This document shows positions 1 through 24,679 of a DNA stretch of 64,000 bases, in pieces. Within the stretch, counting starts at the first letter, position 1, and every line of letters begins with the position of its first letter. Under the pieces are notes generated by a model. That model was not told where the DNA came from and ran no database searches. It saw only the letters and a program-made list of their open reading frames with translations. The DNA lies in the NCBI RefSeq assembly GCF_057098645.1, contig NZ_CM169472.1. One strand, 5' to 3'. The translations under genes and the position numbers were made by a program.

Positions 1-168
1 CTCCAAATCAGCGTGTTAGTCCACTTTGGTGAAAGATGAGATTTATTTGTCGGCTGGCCTTGAGTTTAGCGGGGTATGTCAGTACTATAACGCGTCATTT
101 TTCAGCCGACCTTTAACACGTTCCTTGCCTCCCCGGGATTCGGCTGACCCAGACAGGAGGCTGAATAA

Positions 169-582
<414 letters not shown>

Positions 583-588
583 TTTCTG

Positions 589-1135
<547 letters not shown>

Positions 1136-1164
1136 TCGGTCACGGTCCATTAATACGACTTTGA

Positions 1165-1626
<462 letters not shown>

Positions 1627-1645
1627 TTCGTTATTCAACGAGACG

Positions 1646-1680
1646 TAAAAACGCCGACCACTGGTCGGCGTTTTGCTTTC
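1646..1680. terminator. bidirectional intrinsic terminator between convergent rplI and yjfZ
   Basis: GC stem cgccgacc/gtcggcg with 4-nt loop followed by T-run. Confidence 0.6.
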
Positions 1681-1696
1681 TATTTTTCGTCAGGTA

Positions 1697-2491
1697 TTAG
1701 TTTCGCAAGTAGATCCATTCACCATTCTCTTGTGTCCATAAGTCAGGATGGTTTGCTGGCGTTAGATACATACGAGCGCAACTGATGTCTCGCTCCTGCG
1801 GCACTCGCTCGAAACCCAAACCCGAGTAGATTGCGGCTGAACTTGATAAGGAACGCAGACCAATTTTCAAATCATGGGGTAAATCAGAATACGCGTTTAG
1901 CAATGCAGCAATGATGAATCCGAGGGCATTAGAAACGCCTGTAACAGTGCGAAGTTGGTCGATATAAAGATCGATTGTTGGTAGTTCAGATGACCAGCAA
2001 TTAGGCATTTGGGCAGGAAGGGTTACAACGTATCCTATCGTTTGGCCGGTATAGTCTGGAGTACCATAACCAGGTCCCAAAACCACTTCGTGTATTGTGT
2101 ATTTACTGTTGGGTTCGAAGGATTCGACATCTTGCAATAAATATTTCAGTTCTGCGGTTAACCTCGCACCCGCGTAAGCTTTATTGTATTTCTGGGCGTG
2201 AATATTATCTAATGTAGCTTCATGGTTCCATCCAAAAGAATTATCACCATTCATTGTTACTCCATCGTAAGCATTACACTTCTTTGCTAACTTATTGAAT
2301 GCTTGCCAGTCTGAGAGATCTAGTTTGTGGATCTCAACAGTACGTCTGCCATCGCAATTATGATCTCTTCCACGATTTGACAGTAATGTAGCGCGTGCGT
2401 ATTGATGAAATTTTAGTTTTGCTGGTTTGTCGGTGGACGAAAAACGAGGTAAATATGCGGGGAATGAATAAATAGTTGTTGGTAATGTCAT
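1697..2491 (-). CDS. yjfZ: uncharacterized protein YjfZ (DUF2686)
   Basis: 264-aa ORF, AT-rich, matches remembered YjfZ length and position after rplI. Confidence 0.82.
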   Translation of the reverse strand: MTLPTTIYSFPAYLPRFSSTDKPAKLKFHQYARATLLSNRGRDHNCDGRRTVEIHKLDLSDWQAFNKLAKKCNAYDGVTMNGDNSFGWNHEATLDNIHAQKYNKAYAGARLTAELKYLLQDVESFEPNSKYTIHEVVLGPGYGTPDYTGQTIGYVVTLPAQMPNCWSSELPTIDLYIDQLRTVTGVSNALGFIIAALLNAYSDLPHDLKIGLRSLSSSAAIYSGLGFERVPQERDISCARMYLTPANHPDLWTQENGEWIYLRN

Positions 2492-2838
2492 TTTATTGTT
2501 GCCTGTTTAATATTTTTACAAATATCGCAGTTGAATGTTCAAAGAAAAAGAATTGATATTAATAAAAATAAGTTTGTTTTCTGAAGTAGTGAAAATAGCG
2601 GATGGTGAAAGATATTAATATCAAAAATCGCTCATTGTGGATATAACGATGCAGCAGGGGAGAAAATGACTTCCACGCCTTACACCGTACATTCTTGTTG
2701 TGCGGTATGTAATTATTCTACGCTGTCGGTATTGGTGTATTCGTTAATCAGCAGGTTAACCAGCCACAAAAAGCCATTGAGAAAATTATTGATTTTACAT
2801 GGAATTATTATATTGCCAATCCTTGTTTTTTAAAAATT

Positions 2839-3057
2839 GTGCATAGTGAAAATCAAAGTAAAGGTGTGCATTATGCAAAATCACAGCGTCTCTTAGAAAT
2901 TACCCATGCGCACTTGCAGTTAATGGAATCCTTATTGGATGAAGGGAAGAAACACAATATTTTTAAGCCAGATATCGACCCATTTCAGGTGAATATTAAT
3001 ATTGCTGCGCTTGGGGGATATTATTTGATCAACCAGCATACGCTTGGCCTGGTTTAT
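2839..3057 (+). pseudogene. ytfA: ytfA 5' segment (TetR-like C-terminal-domain fragment) interrupted by IS200/IS605 element
   Basis: ORF starts with GTG at 2839; reading frame runs into IS left end; joining 2839..3057 to 4802..4909 restores an uninterrupted 108-codon ORF. Confidence 0.6.
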
Positions 3058-3114
3058 CCGGTGCGCCGTAAAACCCCGTCCTTCAGGGCGGGGATATACG
3101 GCGCGGTTTTCCAC

Positions 3115-3527
3115 CTAACCAGGTGTTTGCTGTTGTTCAATGTATTGACGGATGGCGGATATTGGCGCACCTCCGCAGCTACTGGCAAAATAGCCAGGAC
3201 TCCACAAAACGCCTTTGTAGTAATACCTGACTGCAATATCTGGTCGATCTCGTCGCAGTAACCTACCCGATACGCCTTTGAGGCTGTTTACCAGACTGGA
3301 TATCGCCAGTTTGGGAGGATAGTTAATTAACAAACGTGATCTGGTTCGCCATCCATTTCAACCAGTTCAGCTTCAAAATCAGCACATACCTTTGAAAAGT
3401 AAGTGCGTAGTTTTTCTGTCGCGTCATGGTCAAAAATCTGGCGTCGGTATCTGGTGACAAAGACCAGGTGAACATGCATCAGGAAAACACAATGCCTTCC
3501 ACGCCGGATATCGGTTTCTTTTTTCAC
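3115..3527 (-). pseudogene. tnpA: IS200/IS605 Y1 (HuH) transposase TnpA, frameshifted
   Basis: N-terminal frame (3327..3527) has HVHLVFVTRYRR and ends at EPDHV-stop; C-terminal frame (3115..3333) continues LINYPPKLAISS...LWSPGYF...IRQYIEQQ; frames offset by one nucleotide inside the HuH motif. Confidence 0.75.
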
Positions 3528-3549
3528 AGACCAAAATATAATTTGACCC

Positions 3550-4758
3550 GTGAAACGACTACAGGCATTTAAATTCCAGTTAAGACCCGGTGGTCAACAG
3601 GAGCGTGAAATGAGGCGCTTCGCAGGCGCATGTCGTTTCGTTTTCAATCGTGCTCTGGCGCTTCAGAATGAGAATCATGAGGCCGGTAATAAATACATCC
3701 CTTACGGGAAAATGGCTTCCTGGCTGGTTGAGTGGAAAAATGCCACTGAAACGCAATGGCTTAAAGATGCCCCGTCACAGCCATTGCAACAGTCACTGAA
3801 AGACCTTGAGCGGGCTTACAAAAACTTCTTCCGGAAGCGGGCTGCTTTTCCCCGATTCAAAAAGCGGGGACAGAATGATGCATTCCGCTACCCGCAGGGC
3901 GTTAAGCTCGATCAGGAAAACAGCCGTATTTTTCTGCCGAAACTTGGCTGGATGCGCTACCGGAATAGCCGTCAGGTCACGGGTGTTGTGAAAAATGTCA
4001 CTGTCAGCCAGTCCTGCGGTAAGTGGTACATCAGTATTCAGACTGAAAATGAAGTATCAACTCCGGTTCACCCTTCAGCATTAATGGTCGGACTGGATGC
4101 TGGCGTGGCTAAACTCGCCACGCTGTCAGATGGCACAGTCTTTGGGCCTGTAAACAGTTTTCAGAAAAACCAGAAGACGCTGGCGAGACTTCAGCGACAG
4201 TTAAGCCGCAAGGTCAAATTCAGCAACAACTGGCAGAAGCAGAAACGCAAAATACAGCGACTGCATTCCCGTATCGCAAATATCCGCAGGGACTACCTTC
4301 ATAAAGTCACAACGACCGTCAGCAAAAACCACGCAATGATAGTCATTGAGGATTTGAAGGTCAGCAACATGTCAAAGTCAGCAGCGGGTACGGTCAGCCA
4401 GCCGGGGCGCAATGTCCGGGCAAAATCAGGTTTAAACCGTTCGATACTGGATCAGGGCTGGTATGAAATGCGCCGCCAGCTTGAGTACAAGCAGCTCTGG
4501 CGTGGCGGTCAGGTGCTTGCTGTTCCGCCAGCGTACACAAGCCAGCGTTGCGCGTGCTGTGGTCATACAGCGAAAGAAAATCGCCTGTCACAAAGTAAAT
4601 TCAGATGCCAGGCATGTGGATATACAGCGAACGCTGATGTAAATGGCGCTCGTAACATTTTAGCGGCGGGGCACGCCGTTCTTGCCTGTGGAGAGATGGT
4701 GCAGTCAGGCCGCCCGTTGAAGCAGGAACCCACCGAAATGATTCAGGCGACAGCCTGA
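3550..4758 (+). CDS. tnpB: IS200/IS605 accessory protein TnpB (RuvC-like RNA-guided endonuclease)
   Basis: 402-aa ORF (GTG start); RuvC-I GLDAG (D183), RuvC-II IVIEDL (E267), zinc finger CACCGH...CQACG, Ruv[13 protein letters not shown] (D363) all present. Confidence 0.9.
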
Positions 4759-4817
4759 ACGTAGCAGGGATCCACGTCCTTCAGGGCGTGGAGGATGTCA
4801 ACACATCAGTATGGTTT
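4650..4817 (+). ncRNA. predicted TnpB omega-RNA (right-end element RNA): scaffold overlapping tnpB 3' end and RE hairpin, plus about 16-nt guide from the right flank
   Basis: Inference from family architecture: intact tnpB, RE hairpin 4772..4791, IS end at about 4801; guide would be 4802..4817 (cacatcagtatggttt). 5' boundary is a guess. Confidence 0.35.
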
Positions 4818-4909
4818 CACCCCAGGCACTGGAAGCCAGACGTAAGGTCATCAAAGAGACAATCCTTAGCTGGCTTTTGGTTGACCCGTCATCTACCGCG
4901 CACGAATAA
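4802..4909 (+). pseudogene. ytfA: ytfA 3' segment displaced by the IS insertion
   Basis: 35 codons then TAA at 4907..4909, in frame with 2839..3057 once the IS is removed. Confidence 0.45.
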
Positions 4910-5531
4910 AACTGCCATCCGGCTGGCGGGTGAACAGGACCTGTTGATTATTCCCCGTATCAATGGTTAAGCCCGTCACCACGCCGCTGGCGTTCTGGCG
5001 GATTTTCACCATCTGCCCGTTTTGCAAATTACTCAGCGGCTTACCCGCGCCTTCTACCTGCGCCATTGCATAGACATCGGTAGCGGGCAGTCCGTGGTCG
5101 CGGAACAGCTGCGCCATCGTTTTACCGGGTTCGACACGGTAAGAGCGCCATTGATTATCAATTCCGCTATCTGGCTGGAATGGTTGTGTTTGGGTAGTTT
5201 GCGGCTGCTCTTCTGGCTGGCCTTCCTGTATAGGTTCTGGAGCGACCGGAGCCACCTGATCAGGATCATTTTGTGGTGTGACTAATTGCGCCCGCAGCTG
5301 TTCTTCTGTCGGCGGTTGTGATTGTGACTGAATATCTAACTGCGCTTCACGCGTCACCACCGGCGCGTTGGGCGTATCATCAGATGGAAGCAGAAATCCG
5401 ACCACCAATACAATGGCGGCAATAATGATCCCCCGACGATGCATCGGCGGCAGCGGGTCCATGAAGCGAAAATTGTCCGGCGCGTGCCAGACTTTCTCCA
5501 GGGTTGGTTTTAGTTCAAAGCGCCCGGGCAT
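4893..5531 (-). CDS. ytfB: cell-division-associated OapA-domain protein YtfB
   Basis: ORF 4893..5567; start placed at the internal Met giving 212 aa; Pro/Gln-rich linker and C-terminal OapA/LysM-like region. Confidence 0.82.
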
Positions 5532-5749
5532 GGTTTCCTCCTGCTCCGCGTCTTGTTCCTCAATCATAGCCTATGAATAAGCTAACGCTATGATGTCCGT
5601 GGTAAACCCGCCTTTATTATATTCATACGGGATATTGCTATTGTTTCTTTTTCCCCGGGATTTGTCATCATTCCTGCGACAAAGTTTTACCCAAAGAAGT
5701 GTGGCTGATATGCTGCCCGCTACTTTTATACCCTAAGAAAGGAAATACG

Positions 5750-6370
5750 ATGACCACCCCAACTTTTGACACCATCGAAGCGCAAGCAAGCTACGGCATT
5801 GGTTTGCAGGTAGGGCAACAACTGAGTGAATCTGGCCTGGAAGGGCTGCTGCCAGAAGCACTGGTTGCAGGTATTGCCGATGCGCTGGAAGGCAAACATC
5901 CGGCTGTTCCGGTTGATGTGGTGCATCGCGCGCTGCGTGAAATCCACGAACGCGCCGATGCCGTTCGTCGTCAGCGTTTCCAGGCGATGGCTGCTGAAGG
6001 TGTGAAATACCTGGAAGAAAACGCCAAAAAAGAAGGTGTGAATAGCACCGAATCTGGCCTGCAATTCCGCGTGATCAACCAGGGTGAAGGCGCAATTCCG
6101 GCACGTACCGACCGCGTTCGTGTTCATTACACCGGTAAACTGATCGACGGCACCGTGTTTGACAGCTCCGTTGCTCGTGGTGAACCCGCTGAATTCCCGG
6201 TTAATGGCGTGATCCCTGGCTGGATTGAAGCACTGACTCTGATGCCGGTAGGTTCTAAATGGGAACTGACTATCCCGCAGGAACTGGCATATGGCGAGCG
6301 CGGCGCAGGCGCGTCCATCCCTCCGTTCAGCACCCTGGTGTTTGAAGTCGAACTGCTGGAAATCCTCTAA
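5750..6370 (+). CDS. fklB: FKBP-type peptidyl-prolyl cis-trans isomerase FklB
   Basis: 206 aa from [12 protein letters not shown]; FKBP domain motifs in C-terminal half. Confidence 0.93.
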
Positions 6371-6642
6371 GCAGCGCATTCTGTTCCCCTCGAACCAGAG
6401 GGGAGCAGGCATTCAGCAATAAACCCTTCAGTTTGCCAAACGGCGCTATTTTGTGTTGCAAAGACCCCGTAAGCGTGTATTTTTGTGAGCTGTTTCGCGT
6501 TATCACCGTGATATGACACTCACTTTAAACATAAAATTAACATTAGATCTAAATCTTAGTATTCATCCCGCGTATTGTTACCTAATATCGATGAGTCCCG
6601 ATACAGATTCGTCGTATCATAGACTGACTAAAGGCCGTAGAG

Positions 6643-6667
6643 CCTGAACAACACAGACAGGTACAGG
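6643..6667 (+). promoter_or_regulatory. CA-rich element in cycA 5' UTR (candidate GcvB sRNA pairing site)
   Basis: cctgaacaacacagacaggtacagg just upstream of the cycA RBS; cycA is a known GcvB target. Confidence 0.4.
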
Positions 6668-6678
6668 AAGAAAAAAAC

Positions 6679-8091
6679 ATGGTAGATCAGGTAAAAGTCG
6701 TTGCCGATGATCAGGCTCCGGCTGAACAGTCGCTACGGCGCAATCTCACAAACCGACATATTCAGCTTATTGCCATTGGCGGTGCCATTGGTACGGGGTT
6801 GTTTATGGGGTCCGGCAAAACGATTAGCCTTGCCGGGCCGTCGATCATTTTCGTTTATATGATCATTGGTTTTATGCTCTTTTTCGTGATGCGGGCAATG
6901 GGGGAATTGCTGCTTTCGAATCTGGAATACAAATCTTTTAGTGACTTCGCTTCCGATTTACTCGGGCCGTGGGCAGGATATTTCACCGGCTGGACTTACT
7001 GGTTCTGCTGGGTTGTAACCGGTATGGCAGACGTGGTGGCGATCACGGCTTATGCTCAGTTCTGGTTCCCCGATCTCTCCGACTGGGTCGCCTCGCTGGC
7101 GGTGATAGTGCTGCTGCTGACGCTTAACCTCGCCACCGTGAAAATGTTCGGTGAGATGGAGTTCTGGTTTGCGATGATCAAAATCGTCGCCATTGTGTCG
7201 CTGATTGTCGTCGGCCTGGTCATGGTGGCGATGCACTTTCAGTCACCGACTGGTGTGGAAGCGTCATTCGCGCATTTGTGGAACGATGGCGGATGGTTCC
7301 CGAAAGGTTTAAGTGGCTTCTTTGCCGGATTCCAGATAGCGGTTTTCGCTTTCGTGGGGATTGAGCTGGTAGGTACAACAGCTGCGGAAACCAAAGATCC
7401 AGAGAAATCACTGCCACGCGCGATTAACTCCATTCCGATCCGTATCATTATGTTCTACGTCTTCGCGCTGATTGTGATTATGTCCGTGACGCCGTGGAGT
7501 TCGGTAGTCCCGGAGAAAAGCCCGTTTGTTGAACTGTTCGTGTTGGTAGGGCTGCCTGCTGCCGCAAGCGTGATCAACTTTGTGGTGCTGACCTCTGCGG
7601 CGTCTTCCGCTAACAGCGGCGTCTTCTCTACCAGCCGTATGCTGTTTGGTCTGGCGCAGGAAGGTGTTGCGCCGAAAGCGTTCGCTAAACTTTCTAAGCG
7701 CGCAGTACCCGCGAAAGGATTGACCTTCTCGTGTATCTGTCTGCTCGGCGGCGTGGTGATGTTGTATGTGAATCCTAGCGTGATTGGCGCGTTCACGATG
7801 ATTACAACCGTTTCCGCGATTCTGTTTATGTTCGTCTGGACGATTATCCTTTGCTCGTACCTGGTGTATCGCAAACAGCGACCTCATCTGCATGAGAAGT
7901 CGATCTACAAGATGCCGCTCGGCAAGCTGATGTGCTGGGTATGTATGGCGTTCTTTGTGTTCGTGGTCGTGTTGCTGACACTGGAAGATGACACTCGCCA
8001 GGCGCTGTTGGTCACCCCGCTGTGGTTTATCGCACTGGGGCTGGGCTGGTTGTTTATTGGTAAGAAGCGGGCTGCTGAACTGCGGAAATAA
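6679..8091 (+). CDS. cycA: D-serine/D-alanine/glycine:H+ symporter CycA
   Basis: 470-aa polytopic APC-family permease. Confidence 0.95.
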   Translation: MVDQVKVVADDQAPAEQSLRRNLTNRHIQLIAIGGAIGTGLFMGSGKTISLAGPSIIFVYMIIGFMLFFVMRAMGELLLSNLEYKSFSDFASDLLGPWAGYFTGWTYWFCWVVTGMADVVAITAYAQFWFPDLSDWVASLAVIVLLLTLNLATVKMFGEMEFWFAMIKIVAIVSLIVVGLVMVAMHFQSPTGVEASFAHLWNDGGWFPKGLSGFFAGFQIAVFAFVGIELVGTTAAETKDPEKSLPRAINSIPIRIIMFYVFALIVIMSVTPWSSVVPEKSPFVELFVLVGLPAAASVINFVVLTSAASSANSGVFSTSRMLFGLAQEGVAPKAFAKLSKRAVPAKGLTFSCICLLGGVVMLYVNPSVIGAFTMITTVSAILFMFVWTIILCSYLVYRKQRPHLHEKSIYKMPLGKLMCWVCMAFFVFVVVLLTLEDDTRQALLVTPLWFIALGLGWLFIGKKRAAELRK

Positions 8092-8135
8092 CCGCATTAT
8101 CATGCTGGATGGCGCAATGCCATCCAGCTTTTAGA

Positions 8136-8798
8136 TCACTCACCCGCCAGCGCGCGTGGGAACAGTACATTGTTTTCCAGGCTGATGTGATCCATCAGGT
8201 CATCAATCAGTTCATTAATGCCGTTATACATCGCTTTCCAGGTGGTGCAGGCTTCCGGCGGCGGTGTGACGTTATTGGTAGTGTGTTTGATCACTTCCAG
8301 CAGTTCACCCGCTTCATCGTGCTCGCTTTCCATTACGCTGATTGGCCCCATTGCCTGGCTGCCCATGCCTTGTTTGATCATCGGGAAGAGGATCTGCTCT
8401 TCTTTCATCATGTGGCTGGAAAGCTCTTCATGCAGCATAGTCAGGTATTTTGTCAGCCCCTTTGGTACGCTCGGTTTGTCGGCGTGAACGCGCTCGACTT
8501 TAGTCGCTTGCAGGATCAGCTCCGGCAGTTGCTCGCGGTGACGATCGTGGTAGCGCACGATGATATGGTCAATGATTTCTGCCAGCGGGGCGCTACGCCA
8601 GTCTTTCTCAATCGGTTGTTCAGCAAGCTTTGCCAGTTCAGCTTCAATGACCTCAACATCCAGTTCTTTACGTGCCGCCGCACGCGCCAGCGTTTGCTTA
8701 CCGCCGCAGCAGTAATCCATATCATATTTACGAAACAGAGCCGAAGCGCGAGGGATAGAGAGCGCCAGTTCACCTAAAGGTTGGTCGCGATAAGCCAT
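8136..8798 (-). CDS. ytfE: iron-sulfur cluster repair di-iron protein YtfE (RIC)
   Basis: 220-aa [36 protein letters not shown]. Confidence 0.95.
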
Positions 8799-8824
8799 AG
8801 CTGATACCTCATTTTTAATAAGAT

Positions 8825-8847
8825 AAGATGTATTTTAAATGCATCTT
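8825..8847. promoter_or_regulatory. NsrR operator in ytfE promoter
   Basis: Palindrome aagatgtattttaaatgcatctt 27 bp upstream of the ytfE start codon, matching the known NsrR consensus. Confidence 0.65.
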
Positions 8848-8905
8848 TAAGGCAAAAGCTATAACCCTTACGTAGCAGAGGCTTATTTAACTCACTGCCA
8901 GCGTG

Positions 8906-9880
8906 TCAACTTTCTGAGACAGATTCAGTTAAAGGTTTTTCTGGTTTTGCTCTGACCGCGATGACCACGCCAATCACTAACAGCGCGATACCGCTCAGCG
9001 TCATTAGCGGCGGCATTTGCTGGCGGAGTAAAAAGGTGTACAGCAAACCTGCCAGCGTTTCGAAAACAATCAGCGGCCCGAGAATCACTGTCGGTAATCG
9101 CTGGCTGGCGACGTTCCAGCAGAGTGCGCCAACCCATGAGCAAAGCACGGCTATCGCAATCATCAGACTAATAAACACCAGCGGACGGGGGCCAAAGGGT
9201 AGGGAGAAGTCCGGCGTTTGCGTATTCAGCCAGTAACAAGCGACGAGATAGCCGATAAGTGAAACCGGCAGTGTGACCAGCGCCTGCGCTGTTGCCCACA
9301 TCATCGGATGTTTGTCGGGATTTTCCCGCAACCAGCGGGCGTTGCGCAGGGCATACCACGCCCAGCAGACCACGGAAACTAACGCCAGCACGATGCCAGA
9401 GGTATAACGTGCCCAGTCAAAATCGGGGAGTCCGTGGTTTAACTCAGCAATATTCACACACGCCAGGCCGATGCCAATACAAATCAGTGCCGGGGCGAGT
9501 TTTCCCCACGCGAGTTTGCCGTCGCGCTGGCTATAAAGCAGATTGGCAAAGACAGGAATCACCACCGGCAGGGTGCCGATAATCATCGTGGAAACAGGCG
9601 CGCCAGTACGTTGAATGGCACTGGCAAGGCAGAAGTAATAAATGAGGTTGCCCATCATAGTGAGCATCAAGGCGGTAAGCCAGTCCCGACGCGCCAACTG
9701 ACGCAGACGCACGCGTCCCAGCCAGGCAATGGGCAGCGCAATTAACCCTAACGCCAGATAACGCCCCATCGACTGCAACATCGCCGGGTATTCCGGTACG
9801 ATCAACGGCCCGACAAAAATAAGCCCCCACATCAACCCTGCTAACAGGGCGTACAGCACGCCGCTAATCATTACTGGCAT
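8906..9880 (-). CDS. ytfF: EamA/DMT-family inner membrane transporter YtfF
   Basis: Hydrophobic 10-TM-like ORF; true start may be the Met at 9871. Confidence 0.85.
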   Translation of the reverse strand: MPVMISGVLYALLAGLMWGLIFVGPLIVPEYPAMLQSMGRYLALGLIALPIAWLGRVRLRQLARRDWLTALMLTMMGNLIYYFCLASAIQRTGAPVSTMIIGTLPVVIPVFANLLYSQRDGKLAWGKLAPALICIGIGLACVNIAELNHGLPDFDWARYTSGIVLALVSVVCWAWYALRNARWLRENPDKHPMMWATAQALVTLPVSLIGYLVACYWLNTQTPDFSLPFGPRPLVFISLMIAIAVLCSWVGALCWNVASQRLPTVILGPLIVFETLAGLLYTFLLRQQMPPLMTLSGIALLVIGVVIAVRAKPEKPLTESVSES

Positions 9881-11426: not shown

Positions 11427-13370
11427 TTACTTACTCAAATCCACCTGATAAATCGCAAACCCGATATCATCGGTCGCGACTTTATTCATCGGATATTGCC
11501 CTTTCTCTTTAATAAACGCTGCGGCTTTATCTGACGGGGAAGTTTCGAAACGGATATCCAGTTTCTTATCGGCAGCTATCGGTGCTACACGCCAGTTGTT
11601 ATCTGCCGCCGGGTGAATTTCCCCCGCACGTTTCGACTCATCAGCAATCCACGCTGCCAGCACCGAGCGGTTCTCATCCGGTGAAGCAAAAGCGATATGG
11701 CTGTCGCCCGTACCGGCAAATTTGCCGCCGTAAGCGCGATAGTTATTGGTGGCAACGAGGAACATAGCGTTCGGATCAATCGGCTTGCCATTAAAGGTCA
11801 GGTTCTTAATCCTTTCCGCATTGGCATTAATCATCTGGCACTCGCCGTCATAACGGGCGGGCTGGGTAACATCAATCTGATAATTCACACCATCAATAAC
11901 ATCAAAGTTATAGGTGCGGAAACCGTCCCAGTTGATGAGTGACTGTGGTTTCGTGCTGTTGGGATCAATCTGGTTAAACTGTCCGGCGGAGCACTCCAGC
12001 CACTCTTTCACCTCTTTACCGCTGGCTTTCACCACAATCAGCGTATTGGGATAGAGATAAAGATCGGCGGCATTACGGAAAGTCAGCTGACCTTTTTCCA
12101 CCTCTACATAGCTTGCCGGGTCATTTTTGCGACCACCAACTTTAAACGGTGCGGCAGCTGAAAGCACCGGCAGTTTTGCCAGATCCGGATCGCCCTGAAT
12201 GTAATGCTCGACATACGCTTTTTGCGCGTTGTTCACCACCTGCACGGTCGGATCGTCCTGCACCAGCGCCAGATAGCTATACATATTGTCGGCAGATTTA
12301 CCGATTGGCTTGCTGACGAACTGGCGTGTGGCATCGTGATCGGCTTTGAGTGTTTCTACCAGCTTGCTGTCTTCCGCCGCGAGGGATTTTTTATTAGCGA
12401 TGTCGTAAATCGGTCGTGCTTCCGCTTTCGCTTGCGTCACCTGCCATTTACCGCTGTCATTACTGAGTTGTAAGTCGACCACACCAAGATGATCGCCCCA
12501 CATGCCTGGCATTACCGCCGGAACACCATTCAGCGTGCCTTTGGCGATATCAGCCCCTTCGATATCAGCAAAATCTTTACCTGGGAAAACGGCGTGAGCA
12601 TGGCCAAACATAATGGCGTTAACGCCCGGAATTTCACTGAGGTAATAAACTGAGTTTTCCGCCATCACTTTATACGGATCGGCAGACAGCCCGGAATGTG
12701 CCAGAACGACAACAACATCGGCACCTTTCTCGCGCATTTCAGGCACGTATTTGCGCACGGTTTCGGTAATATCATTCACCGTCACTTTTCCGGATAAATT
12801 AGCTTTATCCCAGCCCATGATTTGTGGTGGCACGACGCCAATATAGCCAATCTTCAGCGTCTGTTTTTTTCCGTCTTTATCGACCACTTCGGTGTCTTTA
12901 ATTAAATACGGTGTAAACATTGGCTGTTTGGTTCTGGCGTCAATGACGTTGGCATTTACATAAGGGAATTTCGCTCCTGCCAGCGCATTTTTCAGGTAAT
13001 CCAGACCGTAGTTAAACTCGTGGTTGCCAAGCGTTCCGACGGTATAGTCCAGCGTATTTAATGCCTTATAGACCGGGTGAATATCGCCTGCTTTTAATCC
13101 TTTCGCCGACATGTAATCTGCCAGCGGACTCCCCTGAATCAAGTCGCCGTTATCAACCAGTACGCTGTTTTTCACTTCATTGCGGGCATCGTTAATCAGG
13201 CTTGCCGTACGTACCAGTCCGAATTTTTCCGTGGCGGTGTCTTTGTAATAATCGAAATCCATCATGTTGCTATGCAGATCAGTGGTTTCCATGATACGCA
13301 GATCGACCGTCGCTGCATTCACACTGGCGGCAATCAGCGTGGCCAGGAGCGTTGCGCTAAACTTAATCAT
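11427..13370 (-). CDS. cpdB: 2',3'-cyclic-nucleotide 2'-phosphodiesterase/3'-nucleotidase CpdB
   Basis: 647 aa from [10 protein letters not shown] with signal peptide; metallophosphatase motifs (GNHEF). Confidence 0.95.
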
Positions 13371-13559
13371 CAGGGACATCCTTTTATCATCGGGAATACG
13401 AAAGAAAAGGGAGAATAAACGTCTTACTTATAGAACAGTGAAGAATGCCACAATTTTACGCTTTGAAAATGATGACACTATCACAGTTGGCGCATTCATT
13501 AACGATAGGGTATAAGTAAAACAATAAGTTAACACCGCTCACAGAGACGAGGTGGAGAA

Positions 13560-14300
13560 ATGTTAGATCAAGTATGCCAGCTTGCACGGAATGCAGGCGA
13601 TGCCATTATGCAGGTCTACGACGGGGCGAAACCGATGGACGTCGTCAGCAAAGCGGACAATTCTCCGGTAACGGCAGCGGATATTGCCGCACACACCGTT
13701 ATCATGGACGGTTTACGTACGCTGACACCGGATATTCCGGTCCTTTCTGAAGAAGATCCTCCCGGTTGGGAAGTCCGTCAGCACTGGCAGCGTTACTGGC
13801 TGGTAGACCCACTGGATGGTACGAAAGAGTTTATTAAACGTAATGGCGAATTCACCGTTAACATTGCGCTCATTGACCATGGCAAACCGATTTTAGGCGT
13901 GGTGTATGCGCCAGTAATGAACGTAATGTACAGCGCGGCAGAAGGCAAAGCGTGGAAAGAAGAGTGCGGTGTGCGCAAGCAGATTCAGGTCCGCGATGCG
14001 CGCCCGCCGCTGGTGGTTATCAGCCGTTCCCATGCAGATGCGGAGCTGAAAGAGTATCTGCAACAGCTTGGCGAACATCAGACCACGTCCATCGGCTCTT
14101 CGCTGAAATTCTGCCTGGTGGCGGAAGGACAGGCGCAGCTGTACCCGCGCTTCGGACCAACGAATATTTGGGACACCGCCGCTGGACATGCTGTGGCTGC
14201 AGCTGCCGGAGCGCATGTTCACGACTGGCAGGGTAAACCGCTGGATTACACTCCGCGCGAGTCGTTCCTGAATCCGGGGTTCAGAGTGTCTATTTACTAA
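13560..14300 (+). CDS. cysQ: 3'(2'),5'-bisphosphate nucleotidase CysQ
   Basis: 246-aa inositol-monophosphatase-family ORF (WLVDPLDGT motif). Confidence 0.95.
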
Positions 14301-14511
14301 ATTCAGATGGCAGAAACAGTGTATTTCCTGATTCTGCCATCCTGATTTCTCCCAACCTAAAAAGTTATAAATAAAAAGAGATTGTATTTAAAGTGCAAAA
14401 ATTCAATTGCTAATAAGTTACATTTTAATAATGAGCGTTTTTTGATAGTTTACTTTTATAATGAGATATTTAATGGCGACATAAAGTAACCAAATAAAAT
14501 AAGGTTGTCAT

Positions 14512-15450
14512 ATGTTACCCAAGATCAGACACAATAATTTTATTGGTGCGGTGGAGTTATTTGTAAAGTCTTCGTATACAAAAACACATTCAAACAATTT
14601 TTTTAACAATATCCAGCATGCATTTAATAAAAAAGATTGGATTTCGAATTATGATAGCCTGTTAACTTTGCGGGAGTTCTTTCGTTGCGCAACTCAGATT
14701 GATAAAGATAGTTATCAAGTGCTTTCATCAAAAAATGAAACTGTTAAAGCCATGGATAAGTTTCTTATCAGTTTCAGCCTTAAAGATAACGGTGCCGAAT
14801 ATACAATGACATTGCGAGGTAGTGGATTTGAATACGAAGAAATACCCATAACAATAAATGAATATAACTCATTCATGGATTTCAAAAACCGCGAGTTTCC
14901 GTTAGAACAAAACAGAAGATTGTATGCCTGGGATATTTTGCAGAAAAAACAGTCTGACATACCGAAAAGGATTAAAGGTTATATTCACCAGGCGATTGGT
15001 GACGTGTCTTTAGGTTATGCCTTATTGGAGGATATAGTAAGCAAATTAAAACGGGGTAAATTTGAACTCCAAATACCAGGAGGTGGAATTAAAGAATGCG
15101 ATGGATGGTATATTTACGAAAAAATAATTGATGATAATTTTGCCATAGTCATAGAATCTTTGGGCTTTGCGCTTAAAATCTATGGAGGGGATGAACGTTT
15201 TCGTAATGGTTCCTCTGTTGTTTTGGAGGATGAAGATTACTCTCTTATTTATAATTTTCTGGTTAATGCAGGTTGCCAACAAGTCGAATTAGCCGAACAA
15301 GTGGATGCGATAGTAAGTGCGAATCTGGCCGCAGATAGTGATATTACCAAAGAAAAGATTTGCGAGAAATATAAATCGACCATTGAGGCGTTTAAAAAAG
15401 AGCAACTAGCGTTACCAGTATTAGTTCGGCGTAAGAACTCAGAGACTTAA
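14512..15450 (+). CDS. ytfI: uncharacterized protein YtfI
   Basis: 312-aa ORF in a visibly AT-rich segment; no recognisable domain. Confidence 0.78.
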   Translation: MLPKIRHNNFIGAVELFVKSSYTKTHSNNFFNNIQHAFNKKDWISNYDSLLTLREFFRCATQIDKDSYQVLSSKNETVKAMDKFLISFSLKDNGAEYTMTLRGSGFEYEEIPITINEYNSFMDFKNREFPLEQNRRLYAWDILQKKQSDIPKRIKGYIHQAIGDVSLGYALLEDIVSKLKRGKFELQIPGGGIKECDGWYIYEKIIDDNFAIVIESLGFALKIYGGDERFRNGSSVVLEDEDYSLIYNFLVNAGCQQVELAEQVDAIVSANLAADSDITKEKICEKYKSTIEAFKKEQLALPVLVRRKNSET

Positions 15451-15512
15451 TTCCCCTATCCCATAGATAACGATAGGGGAAAATTATTTTTGCAGAATTT
15501 ATGTTATTGCCA

Positions 15513-16067
15513 TTATTTGAGCAACTTTTGCAGCAGGTCCATCACTTGCTGCACCTCTTCCTGAGTGAGCGCCCCGTCTTTGGCCCATTGCACGCGACCA
15601 TCCTTATCCAGCACCACTACAGCGGAACTCTCTTCATCCAGCTGCCAGGCACCGCGCGCGACGCCATTGCTATCGACAATAAACTGCGACCAGGGATAAA
15701 GCTTTTTATTACTCTCCAGACTGCTGCGCACAAACATGCCGGAACCCGGAATCGCGTCGTCGGTGTTAACAATGGTGGTGGTCTGGTAACGATCGTGCGG
15801 TAACTTCGCTGATTTAATCGCTTCAATCAGCGTCGCGTTTTTCTCTTTTGCAGAGGTGCGACCAGCAATATGTTGCAGTACTCGCACTTTTCCCACTAAC
15901 TGTGCGCTGTTCCAGGTTTTGTAGCTAAACTGATCTTTATCAAGCACCAACTCGCCCCGATCGGTAATGCCAATCGGCGGCACTCGCTGACCGGTTTCGA
16001 ACTGATGTGCGGAAGCCATCATCGGCAACAGCAGGCAGGTGAGTGCCAGAATCTTGCGTAGGGTCAT
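15513..16067 (-). CDS. ytfJ: periplasmic protein YtfJ
   Basis: 184-aa ORF with signal peptide MTLRKILALTCLLLPMMASA. Confidence 0.88.
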   Translation of the reverse strand: MTLRKILALTCLLLPMMASAHQFETGQRVPPIGITDRGELVLDKDQFSYKTWNSAQLVGKVRVLQHIAGRTSAKEKNATLIEAIKSAKLPHDRYQTTTIVNTDDAIPGSGMFVRSSLESNKKLYPWSQFIVDSNGVARGAWQLDEESSAVVVLDKDGRVQWAKDGALTQEEVQQVMDLLQKLLK

Positions 16068-16391
16068 GGTGTTTCCTTCTTATGATATGCAGGTGATCCG
16101 ACCACTTGGGTCTGAGTTTTAATCATATGTGCTATTTATCGAATTTCCCGCAAGTGTGATGCCAGTTTGCGGTCAAGCGCACAAATCATATGAAAAATGA
16201 ATGCTTATACTGAAGACCGCGCTTCGGTAAAAAGATAATTCTGAATAATTGTAACCTTTAGGTAAAAAAAGTTATACGCGGTGGAAACATTGCCCGGATA
16301 GTCTATAGTCACTAAGCATTAAAATTTGCGCCTCATAATAGTTGGGCCGATTGTGGCACCGCACAGGCGTAATACTCAGCAGGAGATAACA

Positions 16392-16598
16392 ATGAAAATT
16401 TTCCAACGGTACAACCCACTTCAGGTGGCGAAGTACGTAAAGATCCTGTTCCGTGGACGGTTATACATCAAGGACGTTGGCGCTTTTGAATTTGATAAGG
16501 GTAAGATTCTTATCCCAAAAGTGAAGGATAAGCTGCATTTGTCAGTGATGTCCGAAGTTAACCGTCAGGTTATGCGTCTGCAAACAGAGATGGCTTAA
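16392..16598 (+). CDS. ytfK: small protein YtfK (DUF1107)
   Basis: 68 aa from [11 protein letters not shown]; ATG at 16392 preceded by aggag RBS. Confidence 0.8.
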
Positions 16599-16621
16599 CC
16601 AAAGTGCTATGCAGTAATAAG

Positions 16622-16656
16622 ACGGCTCCTGATTCAGGAGCCGTTGATGTTTCTGG
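16622..16656. terminator. bidirectional terminator between convergent ytfK and ytfL
   Basis: Hairpin cggctcc-tgattc-aggagccg followed by T-rich tract. Confidence 0.5.
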
Positions 16657-16659
16657 GGG

Positions 16660-18003
16660 TTACGCGACGCTTTCTTCTTTATCTTTAGAGTCAGGCAGTT
16701 TTGGCGAAAGGGCTGTGGCCTTGCTGTCGATCCGGGTCACCAGCAGCTGGTCGATGCGGTAGTTATCGATATCCACCACTTCAAATTTGTAGCCGGCGAA
16801 TTTCACCGAATCGGTGCGTTTCGGGATCTTACGCAGCATAAACATCATAAAGCCGCCGATGGTTTCGTAGTTGCCCGACTGCGGGAACTCGTCAATATCC
16901 AGCACGCGCATGACGTCGTCAATCGGGGTACCGCCGTCAATCAGCCATGAGTTCTCATCACGGGCGACAATCTGCTCTTCCAGCCCCTGACCGACCAGAT
17001 CGCCCATCAGCGTGGTCATCACGTCGTTGAGGGTGATGATCCCCACCACCAGCGCGTACTCGTTCATGATCACCGCGAAGTCTTCACCTGCGGTTTTAAA
17101 ACTTTCCAACGCCTCTGAAAGGGTTAACGTATCCGGCACAATCAGCGTGTTGCGAATTTGTACGCCGCTGTTCAGTGCCAGGCTTTGGTTAGCCAGCACG
17201 CGGTTCAGCAGGTCTTTAGAATCGACATAGCCGATGATGTGGTCAATATCTTCATTACAGACGAGGAACTTAGAGTGCGGATGTTCCGCCACCTTATTCT
17301 TCAGACTTTGCTCATCTTCGTGGAGATCAAACCAAATCACGTTTTCACGCGGTGTCATTGACGACGGAACGGTACGGGATTCCAGCTCAAAGACGTTTTC
17401 AATCAGCTCGTGTTCCTGTTTACGTAACACGCCCGCCAGCGCACCGGCTTCCACTACCGCGTAGATGTCATCAGAAGTGATGTCATCTTTACGTACCATT
17501 GGCAGTTTGAAAATACGGAAGATTATGTTCGCCAGGCCGTTGAAGAACCACACCAGCGGGGTGCAAACGTACAGGCAGAAGCGCATCGGGTTGATGATAC
17601 GCAAAGCCACAGCTTCTGGCGCAATCATACCGATGCGTTTCGGGGTTAAATCCGCAAACAGGATAAACATGCCAGTCACTAACGAGAAAGAGAGAATAAA
17701 GCTCAGTTGCTCAGAGAGCTCTGCCGACATATAGCGGGAGAACAGGCTGTGAAAAGCTGGAGAAAATGCCGCATCACCGACGATACCGCCGAGAATCGCC
17801 ACTGCGTTCAGACCGATTTGGACCACGGTAAAGAACATGCCGGGATTTTCCTGCATATTCAGAACGCGTTGGGCATTTATATTGCCTTCATCAGCCAGCA
17901 GTTTAAGTTTGATTTTGCGTGAGGCGGCAAGCGAGATCTCGGACATCGAGAAGAACGCACTTACAGCGATCAAGCAGAGTATGACTAAAATACTGTTTAA
18001 CAT
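16660..18003 (-). CDS. ytfL: UPF0053 inner membrane protein YtfL (CNNM/CBS-pair/CorC-HlyC family)
   Basis: 447-aa ORF: N-terminal TM domain, CBS pair, C-terminal CorC-HlyC. Confidence 0.92.
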   Translation of the reverse strand: MLNSILVILCLIAVSAFFSMSEISLAASRKIKLKLLADEGNINAQRVLNMQENPGMFFTVVQIGLNAVAILGGIVGDAAFSPAFHSLFSRYMSAELSEQLSFILSFSLVTGMFILFADLTPKRIGMIAPEAVALRIINPMRFCLYVCTPLVWFFNGLANIIFRIFKLPMVRKDDITSDDIYAVVEAGALAGVLRKQEHELIENVFELESRTVPSSMTPRENVIWFDLHEDEQSLKNKVAEHPHSKFLVCNEDIDHIIGYVDSKDLLNRVLANQSLALNSGVQIRNTLIVPDTLTLSEALESFKTAGEDFAVIMNEYALVVGIITLNDVMTTLMGDLVGQGLEEQIVARDENSWLIDGGTPIDDVMRVLDIDEFPQSGNYETIGGFMMFMLRKIPKRTDSVKFAGYKFEVVDIDNYRIDQLLVTRIDSKATALSPKLPDSKDKEESVA

Positions 18004-18180
18004 ATCTTATCCGACCTTTCAGGCCAGATCCTCGGAAGGGGAAGTTGATTAATTTGTGTGAAATACACATTGAAAGCCGATTCGAAGAAAGTGAACCGGC
18101 ATTTTCAGTGGCTAGTATAGCGTAAGGTACTGTAAAGCCGCCAGAGGGTTAAAATTCAGGCTGCTGATAAATGCAAAACT

Positions 18181-18285
18181 GCCCGATGCGCTATGCCGAT
18201 CAGGCCTACGCAGTCCTTGCAATATATTGAATTTGGAAGATTTTGTAGGCCTGGCAAGGCGTTTACGCCGCATCCGGCATAAACA
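18181..18285. repeat. REP/BIME elements
   Basis: gcctgatgcgacgc-like and gccgcatccggca motifs between ytfL and msrA. Confidence 0.55.
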
Positions 18286-18325
18286 AAACGCACTTTATCA
18301 ACAATCTACATTTGTACCCGTAACG

Positions 18326-18964
18326 CTATGCTTCCGGCGGCAGACAGACGCCAATTCCGCCAATTCCACAGTAACCATACGGGTTTTTATGCAGATATTG
18401 CTGGTGGTCATCTTCGGCATAATAAAACGGTGTGGCGTTAGCGATTTCCGTGGTGATGCGACGATCGTCATCGGCGGCAAGCATCGCCGCCTGAAAACGT
18501 TCCAGACTGGCGCGAGCTGCGGCATCCTGTTCTGGGGTCAGCGGATAAATCGCTGAACGATACTGCGTGCCGTGGTCATTGCCCTGACGCATTCCCTGGG
18601 CGGGATCGTGATTCTCCCAAAATACCTGTAGCAACTGCTCATAGCTGATGACGGAAGGATCGTAAACAATGCGTACCGCTTCGGCATGACCCGTATCACC
18701 GGAGCACACTTCCCGATAAGTCGGATTTGGCGTATAGCCGCCGGTATAGCCTGCGGCGGTGCTGTAAACGCCGGGTAACTGCCAGAACAGACGCTCCACA
18801 CCCCAGAAACAACCCATCGCAAAAATGGCAATCTCCATTCCGTCAGGTACATTGGTCATTGAGTGACCGTTAACCGCATGCAGCGTGGCAACGGGCATCG
18901 GGGTGTTACGTCCAGGCAGGGCATCGGCGGGGGAAACCAGATGCTTTTTATCAAATAAACTCAT
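18326..18964 (-). CDS. msrA: peptide methionine sulfoxide reductase MsrA
   Basis: 212 aa from [10 protein letters not shown]; GCFWG active-site motif. Confidence 0.95.
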
Positions 18965-19127
18965 GGTGTCGCTCTCCCGAAAATCGGTCATTGGGGTTAA
19001 GGTTGTAACAAGAGGCGTATTTGCACACAATAACCACCGTGAATAGGTCTAAAGTAAAACATAAGAAATATTTGGGGTTTAGTCTGCTTTTTAATCCATA
19101 TTACTGGATTTTTGTTAAGCCGTTTAA

Positions 19128-24679
<5,552 letters not shown>

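Follow-up and report, generated by a model that had tools for sequence, protein, structure and literature searches.

The DNA between the ribosomal protein gene rplI and ytfB in Escherichia coli contains an AT-rich gene, yjfZ, next to a short gene, ytfA, which resembles one half of a TetR-family regulator. This arrangement raises the question of what was lost from the locus, by which events it was lost, and whether yjfZ belongs to the decayed unit. We investigated the locus in a 64,000-nucleotide stretch of DNA (the window), which is 100% identical to E. coli O145 strain RM9872. The RefSeq annotation of the locus gives rpsF-priB-rpsR-rplI, followed by yjfZ on the opposite strand, a TetR/AcrR pseudogene, tnpA, tnpB, a second TetR fragment, ytfB and fklB.

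Base composition of the region downstream of rplI

The intrinsic terminator of the rpsF-priB-rpsR-rplI operon (1648-1674, plus strand), which consists of a 12-pair stem followed by a T run, was kept in all compared loci, and yjfZ is convergent on it. An Rfam scan of positions 1-6500 gave no match within 1697-2838; the complete list of matches comprised the RpsF leader at 105-189, just 5' of rpsF (RF02893, 110 bits), and a sub-threshold HgcC match inside the insertion sequence IS609.

The first-pass annotation had described yjfZ and the spacer up to ytfA as AT-rich, and the measured GC contents agree with this: 42.6% in the yjfZ ORF, 31.7% at 2492-2838 and 39.3% over 1697-2838 as a whole, compared with 50.6% in the window. 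With parts of the region at 28.6-42.6% GC against 50.6%, its AT-richness is well above average, as in xenogeneic DNA. Equal or greater AT-richness was found in 5% of 1142-bp segments and 1.7% of 347-bp segments of the 64 kb. The region is not unique in the window, which contains at least three further low-GC islands. These other islands lie at about 14000-15000, 53300-55500 and 57300-58700, include 1-kb segments down to 31-34% GC, and are equal to the yjfZ region in AT-richness or exceed it. The intact TetR gene described below has a GC content of 40%; the AT-richness of the TetR sequence is a natural property of the gene and not a product of decay.

ytfA is the C-terminal part of a TetR gene

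To place the ytfA sequence, the frame-1 translation was compared with a 215-aa TetR/AcrR protein and considered together with Pfam matches and the PGAP annotation. Codons 83-180 of the TetR gene, carrying the TetR_C_29 domain only, were located at 2764-3057 (plus strand), and by translation and PGAP annotation the tail of the pseudogene, codons 181-215 with the stop codon, was located at 4802-4909 (plus strand). Joining 2764-3057 to 4802-4906 recovered codons 83-215. PGAP notes the first piece as 'missing N-terminus and C-terminus' and the second as 'missing N-terminus'. The ORF that starts at GTG 2839, the historical 108-aa ytfA, matched PF17938 TetR_C_29 (E 6.2e-15, profile positions 27-101 of 119), the C-terminal ligand-binding/dimerisation domain of TetR proteins, and gave no match to TetR_N (PF00440). 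The view that ytfA encodes a TetR C-terminal fragment without the helix-turn-helix (HTH) was thus borne out.

The translated search for HTH remnants at 2492-2838 that had been proposed at first pass found none in any frame, and tblastn of TetR residues 1-82 against the whole window gave a best E value of 0.05 and no remnant. Since the HTH is missing, the sequence in the window is a pseudogene fragment and not a regulator, and no functional element is expected at 2652-3057. The TetR codons are in frame from Pro83, which makes GTG 2839 a valine codon in the interior of the gene; no Shine-Dalgarno-like sequence was found 5' of it. A 55-aa ORF at 2666-2833 was considered as a gene and rejected, as it has no Pfam match and runs out of frame across a relic of an SDR gene and TetR codons.

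Intact loci contain a divergent six-gene operon

A full-length TetR gene encoding 215 aa, with TetR_N at residues 19-61 and TetR_C_29 at residues 83-201, is present between rplI and ytfB in about 58% of complete E. coli genomes. In strain 1532WA, the gene order is rplI-yjfZ-[six minus-strand genes]-TetR (215 aa)-ytfB, and the six code for an MFS transporter, a flavoprotein of 690 aa, a CoA transferase, an enoyl-CoA hydratase, a TIM barrel protein and an SDR. The flavoprotein is fumarate-reductase/L-aspartate-oxidase-like, the CoA transferase FadX/YdiF-like, the TIM barrel protein xylose-isomerase-like (sugar-phosphate isomerase/epimerase-type) and the SDR of the 3-ketoacyl-ACP-reductase type. 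The operon looks like an uncharacterised CoA-dependent organic-acid pathway. The TetR gene is divergent from the operon in the intact loci. A divergent target operon next to the gene is a typical, not a defining, feature of the TetR family, and it is missing from the window save for a 108-bp relic of the SDR gene.

The operon occupies 13162-20581 of the 1532WA locus (L004), 14220-21639 of the E2348/69 locus (L003) and, in a variant with a TRAP transporter, 1129-9194 of a further locus (L006). Strain E2348/69 has the operon and regulator as in 1532WA, with hipBA pseudogenes replacing yjfZ, and strain Res13 has the operon and the TetR gene without yjfZ and with a TRAP transporter replacing the MFS gene. 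The E2348/69 pseudogenes, frameshifted hipB-like and hipA toxin-antitoxin genes, lie between rplI and the operon at 12317-14077 of L003. Because they occupy the slot of yjfZ, the site just downstream of the rplI terminator is a recurrent insertion site.

The intact arrangement was also found in the rplI-ytfB slot of E. whittamii, E. albertii, a divergent 'E. coli' species representative, Klebsiella spallanzanii and Entomohabitans teleogrylli. In the literature, ytfA is described as a TetR-family regulator gene that is present in only some E. coli and in all examined E. albertii and E. fergusonii strains (PMC6790063), and the K-12 copy is regarded as a pseudogene (bioRxiv 10.64898/2025.12.20.695731). 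The comparison across Enterobacteriaceae called for by the first-pass annotation therefore yielded a full-length TetR gene in the corresponding place, namely in E2348/69, 1532WA and Res13 as well as in other Escherichia species. Neither of the two outcomes that it had named as contrary was encountered: ytfA homologues are not naturally short everywhere, as 215-aa homologues with TetR_N and TetR_C_29 exist, and the strain itself has no intact regulator, as the window contains no HTH remnant.

Two deletion junctions with microhomology border a relic of the SDR gene

The window is collinear with 1532WA at 1600-2659, to 168 bp upstream of yjfZ, and its TetR-side homology begins at 2763. A search by blastn identified 108 bp left over from the 5' part of the SDR (3-ketoacyl-ACP-reductase) gene at 2652-2759 (minus strand); this relic is 79.6% identical to 1532WA (L004 20386-20493, E 2e-23). 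Alignment with eight intact alleles and two other relics revealed that the SDR reading frame of the relic is interrupted by two stop codons.

The relic is bordered by two deletion junctions. At the first (J1, 2652-2660), the yjfZ 5' region is joined to an internal part of the SDR gene, and 7.3 kb is missing, from the transporter through most of the SDR gene. At the second (J2, 2757-2766), the relic is joined to TetR codon 83, and the missing 545 bp comprised the start of the SDR gene, the divergent control region of 212 bp and codons 1-82 of the TetR gene, among them those for the HTH. Each junction has about 8 bp of microhomology: CA(G/C)CAGGG is found at both parental sites of J1 in 1532WA, and TCCGCCAC is found at both parental sites of J2. 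Microhomology at both parental sites is the usual mark of illegitimate, microhomology-mediated deletion. The 347 bp that precede the annotated start of ytfA (2492-2838) are intergenic in name only, containing TetR codons from 2764 and the relic of another gene at 2652-2759; as a result of these losses, this 'intergenic' DNA is a patchwork of the yjfZ 5' region, the SDR relic and TetR codons.

The arrangement of J1, J2 and the relic in Escherichia sp. E1V33 is identical to that in the window, and J2 is likewise the same in K-12. The relic has about 80% identity to every intact Escherichia allele and 82% to the E1V33 relic, and the intact SDR alleles differ among themselves by 5-13% over the 108 bp, whereas the TetR remnant is 97-100% identical to the intact TetR alleles. 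The simplest account of a diverged relic beside a conserved TetR sequence would be an old scar, the ytfB-proximal part of which was kept similar by recombination. This difference in identity counts against our explanation of the locus, as it requires these extra assumptions.

We examined the distribution of the scar in 5426 complete E. coli genomes. The scar was present in 2226 of them, and most of the remaining genomes were in the intact state, in which the SDR and TetR matches are separate and lie about 790 bp from each other. The eight-kb operon was detected at a coverage of at least 80% in 1660 genomes, and further genomes have the TRAP variant. Intermediates with J1 but without J2 were not found in any of the 5426 genomes. 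Strains 2017.06.04CC (L089) and JCC-EE 7 (L090) carry independent ISKpn26- or IS1B-associated deletions of other parts of the locus, one from the yjfZ N-terminus through the TetR remnant and the other from the TRAP permease into the TetR gene, of which the first 63 bp (~20 codons) are gone; these independent IS-associated deletions indicate that the locus decays repeatedly. A TetR fragment of the scar form, beginning at residue 83 and 97% identical, was also found on a 1283-bp contig of a 'Collinsella sp.' MAG (L026), which is most likely E. coli contamination.

yjfZ is an intact module outside the decayed unit

The yjfZ gene (1697-2491, minus strand), which is restricted to E. coli, is an intact ORF encoding 264 aa, and its product matched Pfam PF10887 DUF2686 with an E value of 1.8e-153 and 509.9 bits (gathering cut-off 25). 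Residues 5-264 align to profile positions 17-285, identifying YjfZ as a full-length member of the family. The pN/pS ratio of yjfZ is 0.2-0.5 from few substitutions, a constraint that is typical to weak. The gene was found in 2538 of the 5426 genomes (47%), and its paralogue yjiC, located adjoining uxuR (L088 1501-2331), was found in 4894 (90%).

The 5' region of yjfZ (2492-2659, minus strand; 28.6% GC) moves together with the gene. It matches 1532WA (L004 12881-13060) and E1V33 (L012 9762-9893) and has no match in intact loci without yjfZ. In E1V33, the yjfZ ORF is missing, and the outer 130 bp of the 5' region (2530-2659) is kept, fused to the rplI terminator. Since this 130-bp piece is absent from the intact loci without yjfZ, it is part of the yjfZ module, and E1V33 would most simply have lost the yjfZ ORF later. 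The gene coexists with the intact operon, for example in 1532WA, and the counts of yjfZ and of the scar imply about 300 genomes with yjfZ and a non-scar locus. yjfZ is a separate intact unit outside the decay.

These data bear on the possibility that the arrival of a foreign AT-rich yjfZ module replaced the operon in a single illegitimate-recombination event. Such an event would place J1 precisely on the outer boundary of the yjfZ module, where it is found, and would give yjfZ and the scar the similar frequencies that were observed (2538 and 2226 genomes). However, the approximately 300 genomes exemplified by 1532WA have yjfZ together with the complete operon and the TetR gene, and past the J1 point they have another 100 bp of sequence from the operon side. 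E1V33, moreover, has the scar without the yjfZ ORF. We consider a single replacement improbable and favor deletion from a locus that already contained yjfZ.

The YjfZ family is exceptionally narrow. Searches for relatives of YjfZ among word-indexed 5.8 billion proteins and, exhaustively, among 1.8 billion representatives returned only fragments of YjfZ and the paralogue YjiC. No relative was found in phages, and in plasmids the matches were limited to E. coli records with yjfZ or yjiC. A structure model of YjfZ suggested a GNAT acyltransferase fold with a mean pLDDT of 49 (low confidence), and the AlphaFold2 model of YjiC, with a pLDDT of 36, was too low in confidence to use. The segment aligned to the acetyl-CoA pyrophosphate motif Q/R-x-x-G-x-G/A is LRTVTGVSNALGF in YjfZ and IITVSGVANSSGF in YjiC, which resemble the motif without being canonical. 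A profile search of YjfZ against the PDB gave no GNAT chain, with a single match at E 1.6 to a GH3 beta-N-acetylglucosaminidase, and the C-terminal half of YjfZ matched no acetyltransferase model in Pfam at E values up to 10. A GNAT fold of YjfZ and YjiC is thus a low-confidence prediction from the model.

A scan for the sigma-70 consensus found five sites compared with 4.7 expected from shuffled sequence, which is no enrichment, and none lies immediately 5' of yjfZ. In K-12, the yjfZ-ytfA spacer is listed with an RpoD holoenzyme site and with H-NS in a genomic SELEX table (PMC3946193), and the H-NS entry fits an AT-rich, H-NS-bound accessory gene. yjfZ is probably such a gene, weakly expressed, with a predicted divergent GNAT-fold protein as its product. 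The published E. coli-specific qPCR primers and probe named 'YjfZ' (PMC11057252) have 0-1 mismatches to yjiC and 7-13 to yjfZ.

IS609 was inserted into the TetR remnant

Comparison with an empty site located IS609, a 1744-bp element of the IS200/IS605 family, at 3058-4801 on the plus strand (or 3059-4802, with a 1-nt ambiguity). The empty site in a K-12 derivative reads ...GGTTTATC followed directly by ACATCAG..., and the window has the element between ...GGTTTATC and ACATCAG.... IS609 thus sits 3' of TTAT(C), between TetR codons 180 and 181, and a target duplication is absent. Insertion 3' of a short specific sequence, with neither target-site duplication nor terminal inverted repeats, is as in the IS200/IS605 family. 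The element also carries the TnpA and TnpB genes of this family: tnpA (3115-3542, minus strand) is frameshifted into two ORFs of 72 and 66 aa and is noted by PGAP as 'frameshifted', and tnpB (3550-4758, plus strand) is an intact, annotated ORF encoding a 402-aa protein of the InsQ/TnpB RNA-guided endonuclease family. Subterminal hairpins are present at the left end (-18 kcal/mol, z -3.9) and the right end (-7.7 kcal/mol, z -2.0), both with the core CGTCCTTCAGGGCG. The DNA identity to annotated IS609 copies is 97-98%. The sub-threshold HgcC match (23.5 bits) lies at 4695-4814, across the 3' end of tnpB and the right end of IS609, which is the place where the guide (omega) RNA of TnpB would be expected.

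IS609 was present in the scar of 1742 of the 2226 scar genomes. A synthetic query joining the intact 5' half of the TetR gene to the TetR/IS609 junction, used at a threshold of 80% coverage, detected an intact TetR N-terminus together with IS609 at this site in none of the 5426 genomes. Because IS609 occurs in scar genomes only and never in an intact regulator, the insertion followed the deletion, as anticipated in the first-pass annotation, which had called the region the site later hit by an IS200/IS605 element.

Decay of the TetR remnant is uneven

Removal of the IS in silico showed that the remnant in the window has four private nonsynonymous changes (D96N, W103C, N129T and L156F) and one synonymous change, a 4:1 ratio that fits a loss of constraint. 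The K-12 remnant, in contrast, has no private amino-acid change, and its protein equals that of the intact Res13 allele. Decay is therefore uneven across lineages, and relaxed selection is not evident in every scar lineage; the unchanged K-12 remnant is a point against our explanation. The last codons of the TetR pseudogene extend 17 bp into the 3' end of ytfB, which is convergent with it (4893-4909; ytfB is on the minus strand and reads down from 4909). Owing to this overlap, perturbing 'ytfA', for example by CRISPRi, likely affects ytfB.

The conservation in K-12, where the amino acids of the remnant are those of the C-terminal 133 residues of an intact allele, would be expected if the HTH-less ytfA were a functional short protein with the ligand-binding domain only, acting by ligand sequestration or heterodimerisation and expressed from the AT-rich spacer. 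The RpoD holoenzyme site of the SELEX table (PMC3946193) lies in that spacer, and ytfA CRISPRi altered dapE and bssS expression (bioRxiv 10.64898/2025.12.20.695731), in keeping with such a function. Against it, the CRISPRi would strike the overlapping convergent ytfB too, the remnant is split by IS609 here and in the 1742 scar genomes counted above, W103C is among the four private changes in the window, and GTG 2839 encodes a valine in the interior of the full-length protein and has no Shine-Dalgarno-like sequence before it; the PGAP annotation is that of a pseudogene. We regard a functional ytfA as very improbable and treat the sequence as a relic.

A probable compound deletion scar

This analysis demonstrated the relics and junctions as well as the orthologous intact loci and the population counts, and we conclude, with a probability of about 0.88, that the region is a compound deletion scar beside the intact orphan gene yjfZ. 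In the ancestral state, a gene for a 215-aa TetR/AcrR repressor would have stood divergent from the six-gene operon between rplI and ytfB. Repression of a divergent operon is typical of TetR-family regulators, and by analogy this TetR protein would repress the operon. An AT-rich module of about 975 bp, yjfZ with its 5' region, would then have been placed between the rplI terminator and the operon in some E. coli. Two microhomology-flanked deletions, of 7.3 kb and 545 bp, would have left the SDR relic and the C-terminal 133 TetR codons without the HTH, and in the lineage of the window IS609 would finally have entered at TetR codon 180/181. We infer this order, and 'yjfZ first, deletion second' is the parsimonious choice; recombination could also have brought yjfZ and the operon together.

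The reverse direction, in which the short form is original and B2 and other lineages acquired the operon and the 5' half of the TetR gene by insertion, deserves almost no credence: the nearest TetR relatives outside Enterobacterales are alphaproteobacterial (34-40% identity), with homologues of the SDR, the CoA transferase and the TIM barrel protein close by in one locus, but an insertion is unable to make an in-frame continuation of an existing half gene, the 108-bp SDR fragment has stop codons and both junctions have microhomology, and five other species or genera have the intact arrangement in the rplI-ytfB slot. The intact arrangement in these outgroups, together with the SDR relic, excludes the short form as the original state, and the alphaproteobacterial relatives with their nearby homologues suggest that the whole cluster was probably acquired horizontally at some time.

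The description of the region as a decayed accessory islet therefore applies in part. It suits the TetR-controlled operon and its regulator; it does not suit yjfZ, an intact separate module that coexists with the operon in 1532WA. The decayed unit is the six-gene operon with its regulator, which is ancestral here in the genus.

Implications for annotation and gene function

The case is one of ordinary reductive evolution, and the pseudogene is already flagged in databases. Mildly new are the exact anatomy of the scar, its sharing with another Escherichia species and the hypothesis of a GNAT fold for DUF2686. The K-12 'ytfA' ORF and the 'yjfZ-ytfA intergenic region' are what remains of a TetR-controlled operon that was deleted. 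The yjfZ-ytfA region serves as a promoter region in regulon, SELEX and CRISPRi studies, and the relic origin is to be considered when signals there are interpreted. The function of the regulator is best studied in its intact form with the six-gene CoA-dependent pathway, which is found among others in the examined B2 strains E2348/69 and Nissle 1917. Beyond annotation, the significance is small.

At somewhat less than even odds, we tentatively propose two readings: that DUF2686 is an E. coli-restricted, extremely divergent family of GNAT-fold acyltransferases, and that the scar and the intact operon form an old presence/absence polymorphism. If the GNAT reading is true, the lack of detectable sequence relatives among the 1.8 billion representative proteins would make DUF2686 an enzyme or toxin-like protein that is lineage-specific and either young or fast-evolving. 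An old polymorphism, suggested because the junctions are identical in E1V33 and the SDR relic has diverged by about 20%, would imply long-term coexistence or cross-species transfer of the 'loss allele'.

Comparison with known systems

YjfZ has no sequence-level match to the GNAT superfamily, represented by 2qml, PA3270 (1yre), SpeG and the TacT/AtaT toxins, and differs from it in the non-canonical acetyl-CoA motif TVTGVS and in about 50 extra N-terminal residues. Its paralogue YjiC is 38% identical across the full length and is the only other DUF2686 member among the 1.8 billion representative proteins; it differs from YjfZ in its separate locus and in being commoner (4894 versus 2538 of the 5426 genomes).

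The IS609 copy next to ydcO in K-12 is 97.5% identical to the copy in the window over the whole element. Both have divergent tnpA and tnpB, subterminal hairpins and no target duplication, and the copy in the window differs in that its tnpA is frameshifted.

The K-12 ytfA (b4205), annotated as a TetR/AcrR pseudogene, has the locus, J1, J2, the SDR relic and the GTG codon in common with the window. The K-12 copy is uninterrupted, with 133 in-frame codons, whereas the copy in the window is split by IS609 and carries D96N, W103C, N129T and L156F. The full-length proteins WP_001298021.1 and WP_015674817.1 of E2348/69 and 1532WA differ from the remnant in the window in having the TetR_N HTH (residues 19-61), the promoter region and the operon, and the window is without all three. 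They are nevertheless orthologous to it: identity is 97-98% over the 133 codons in common, and the genes hold the same position between rplI and ytfB.
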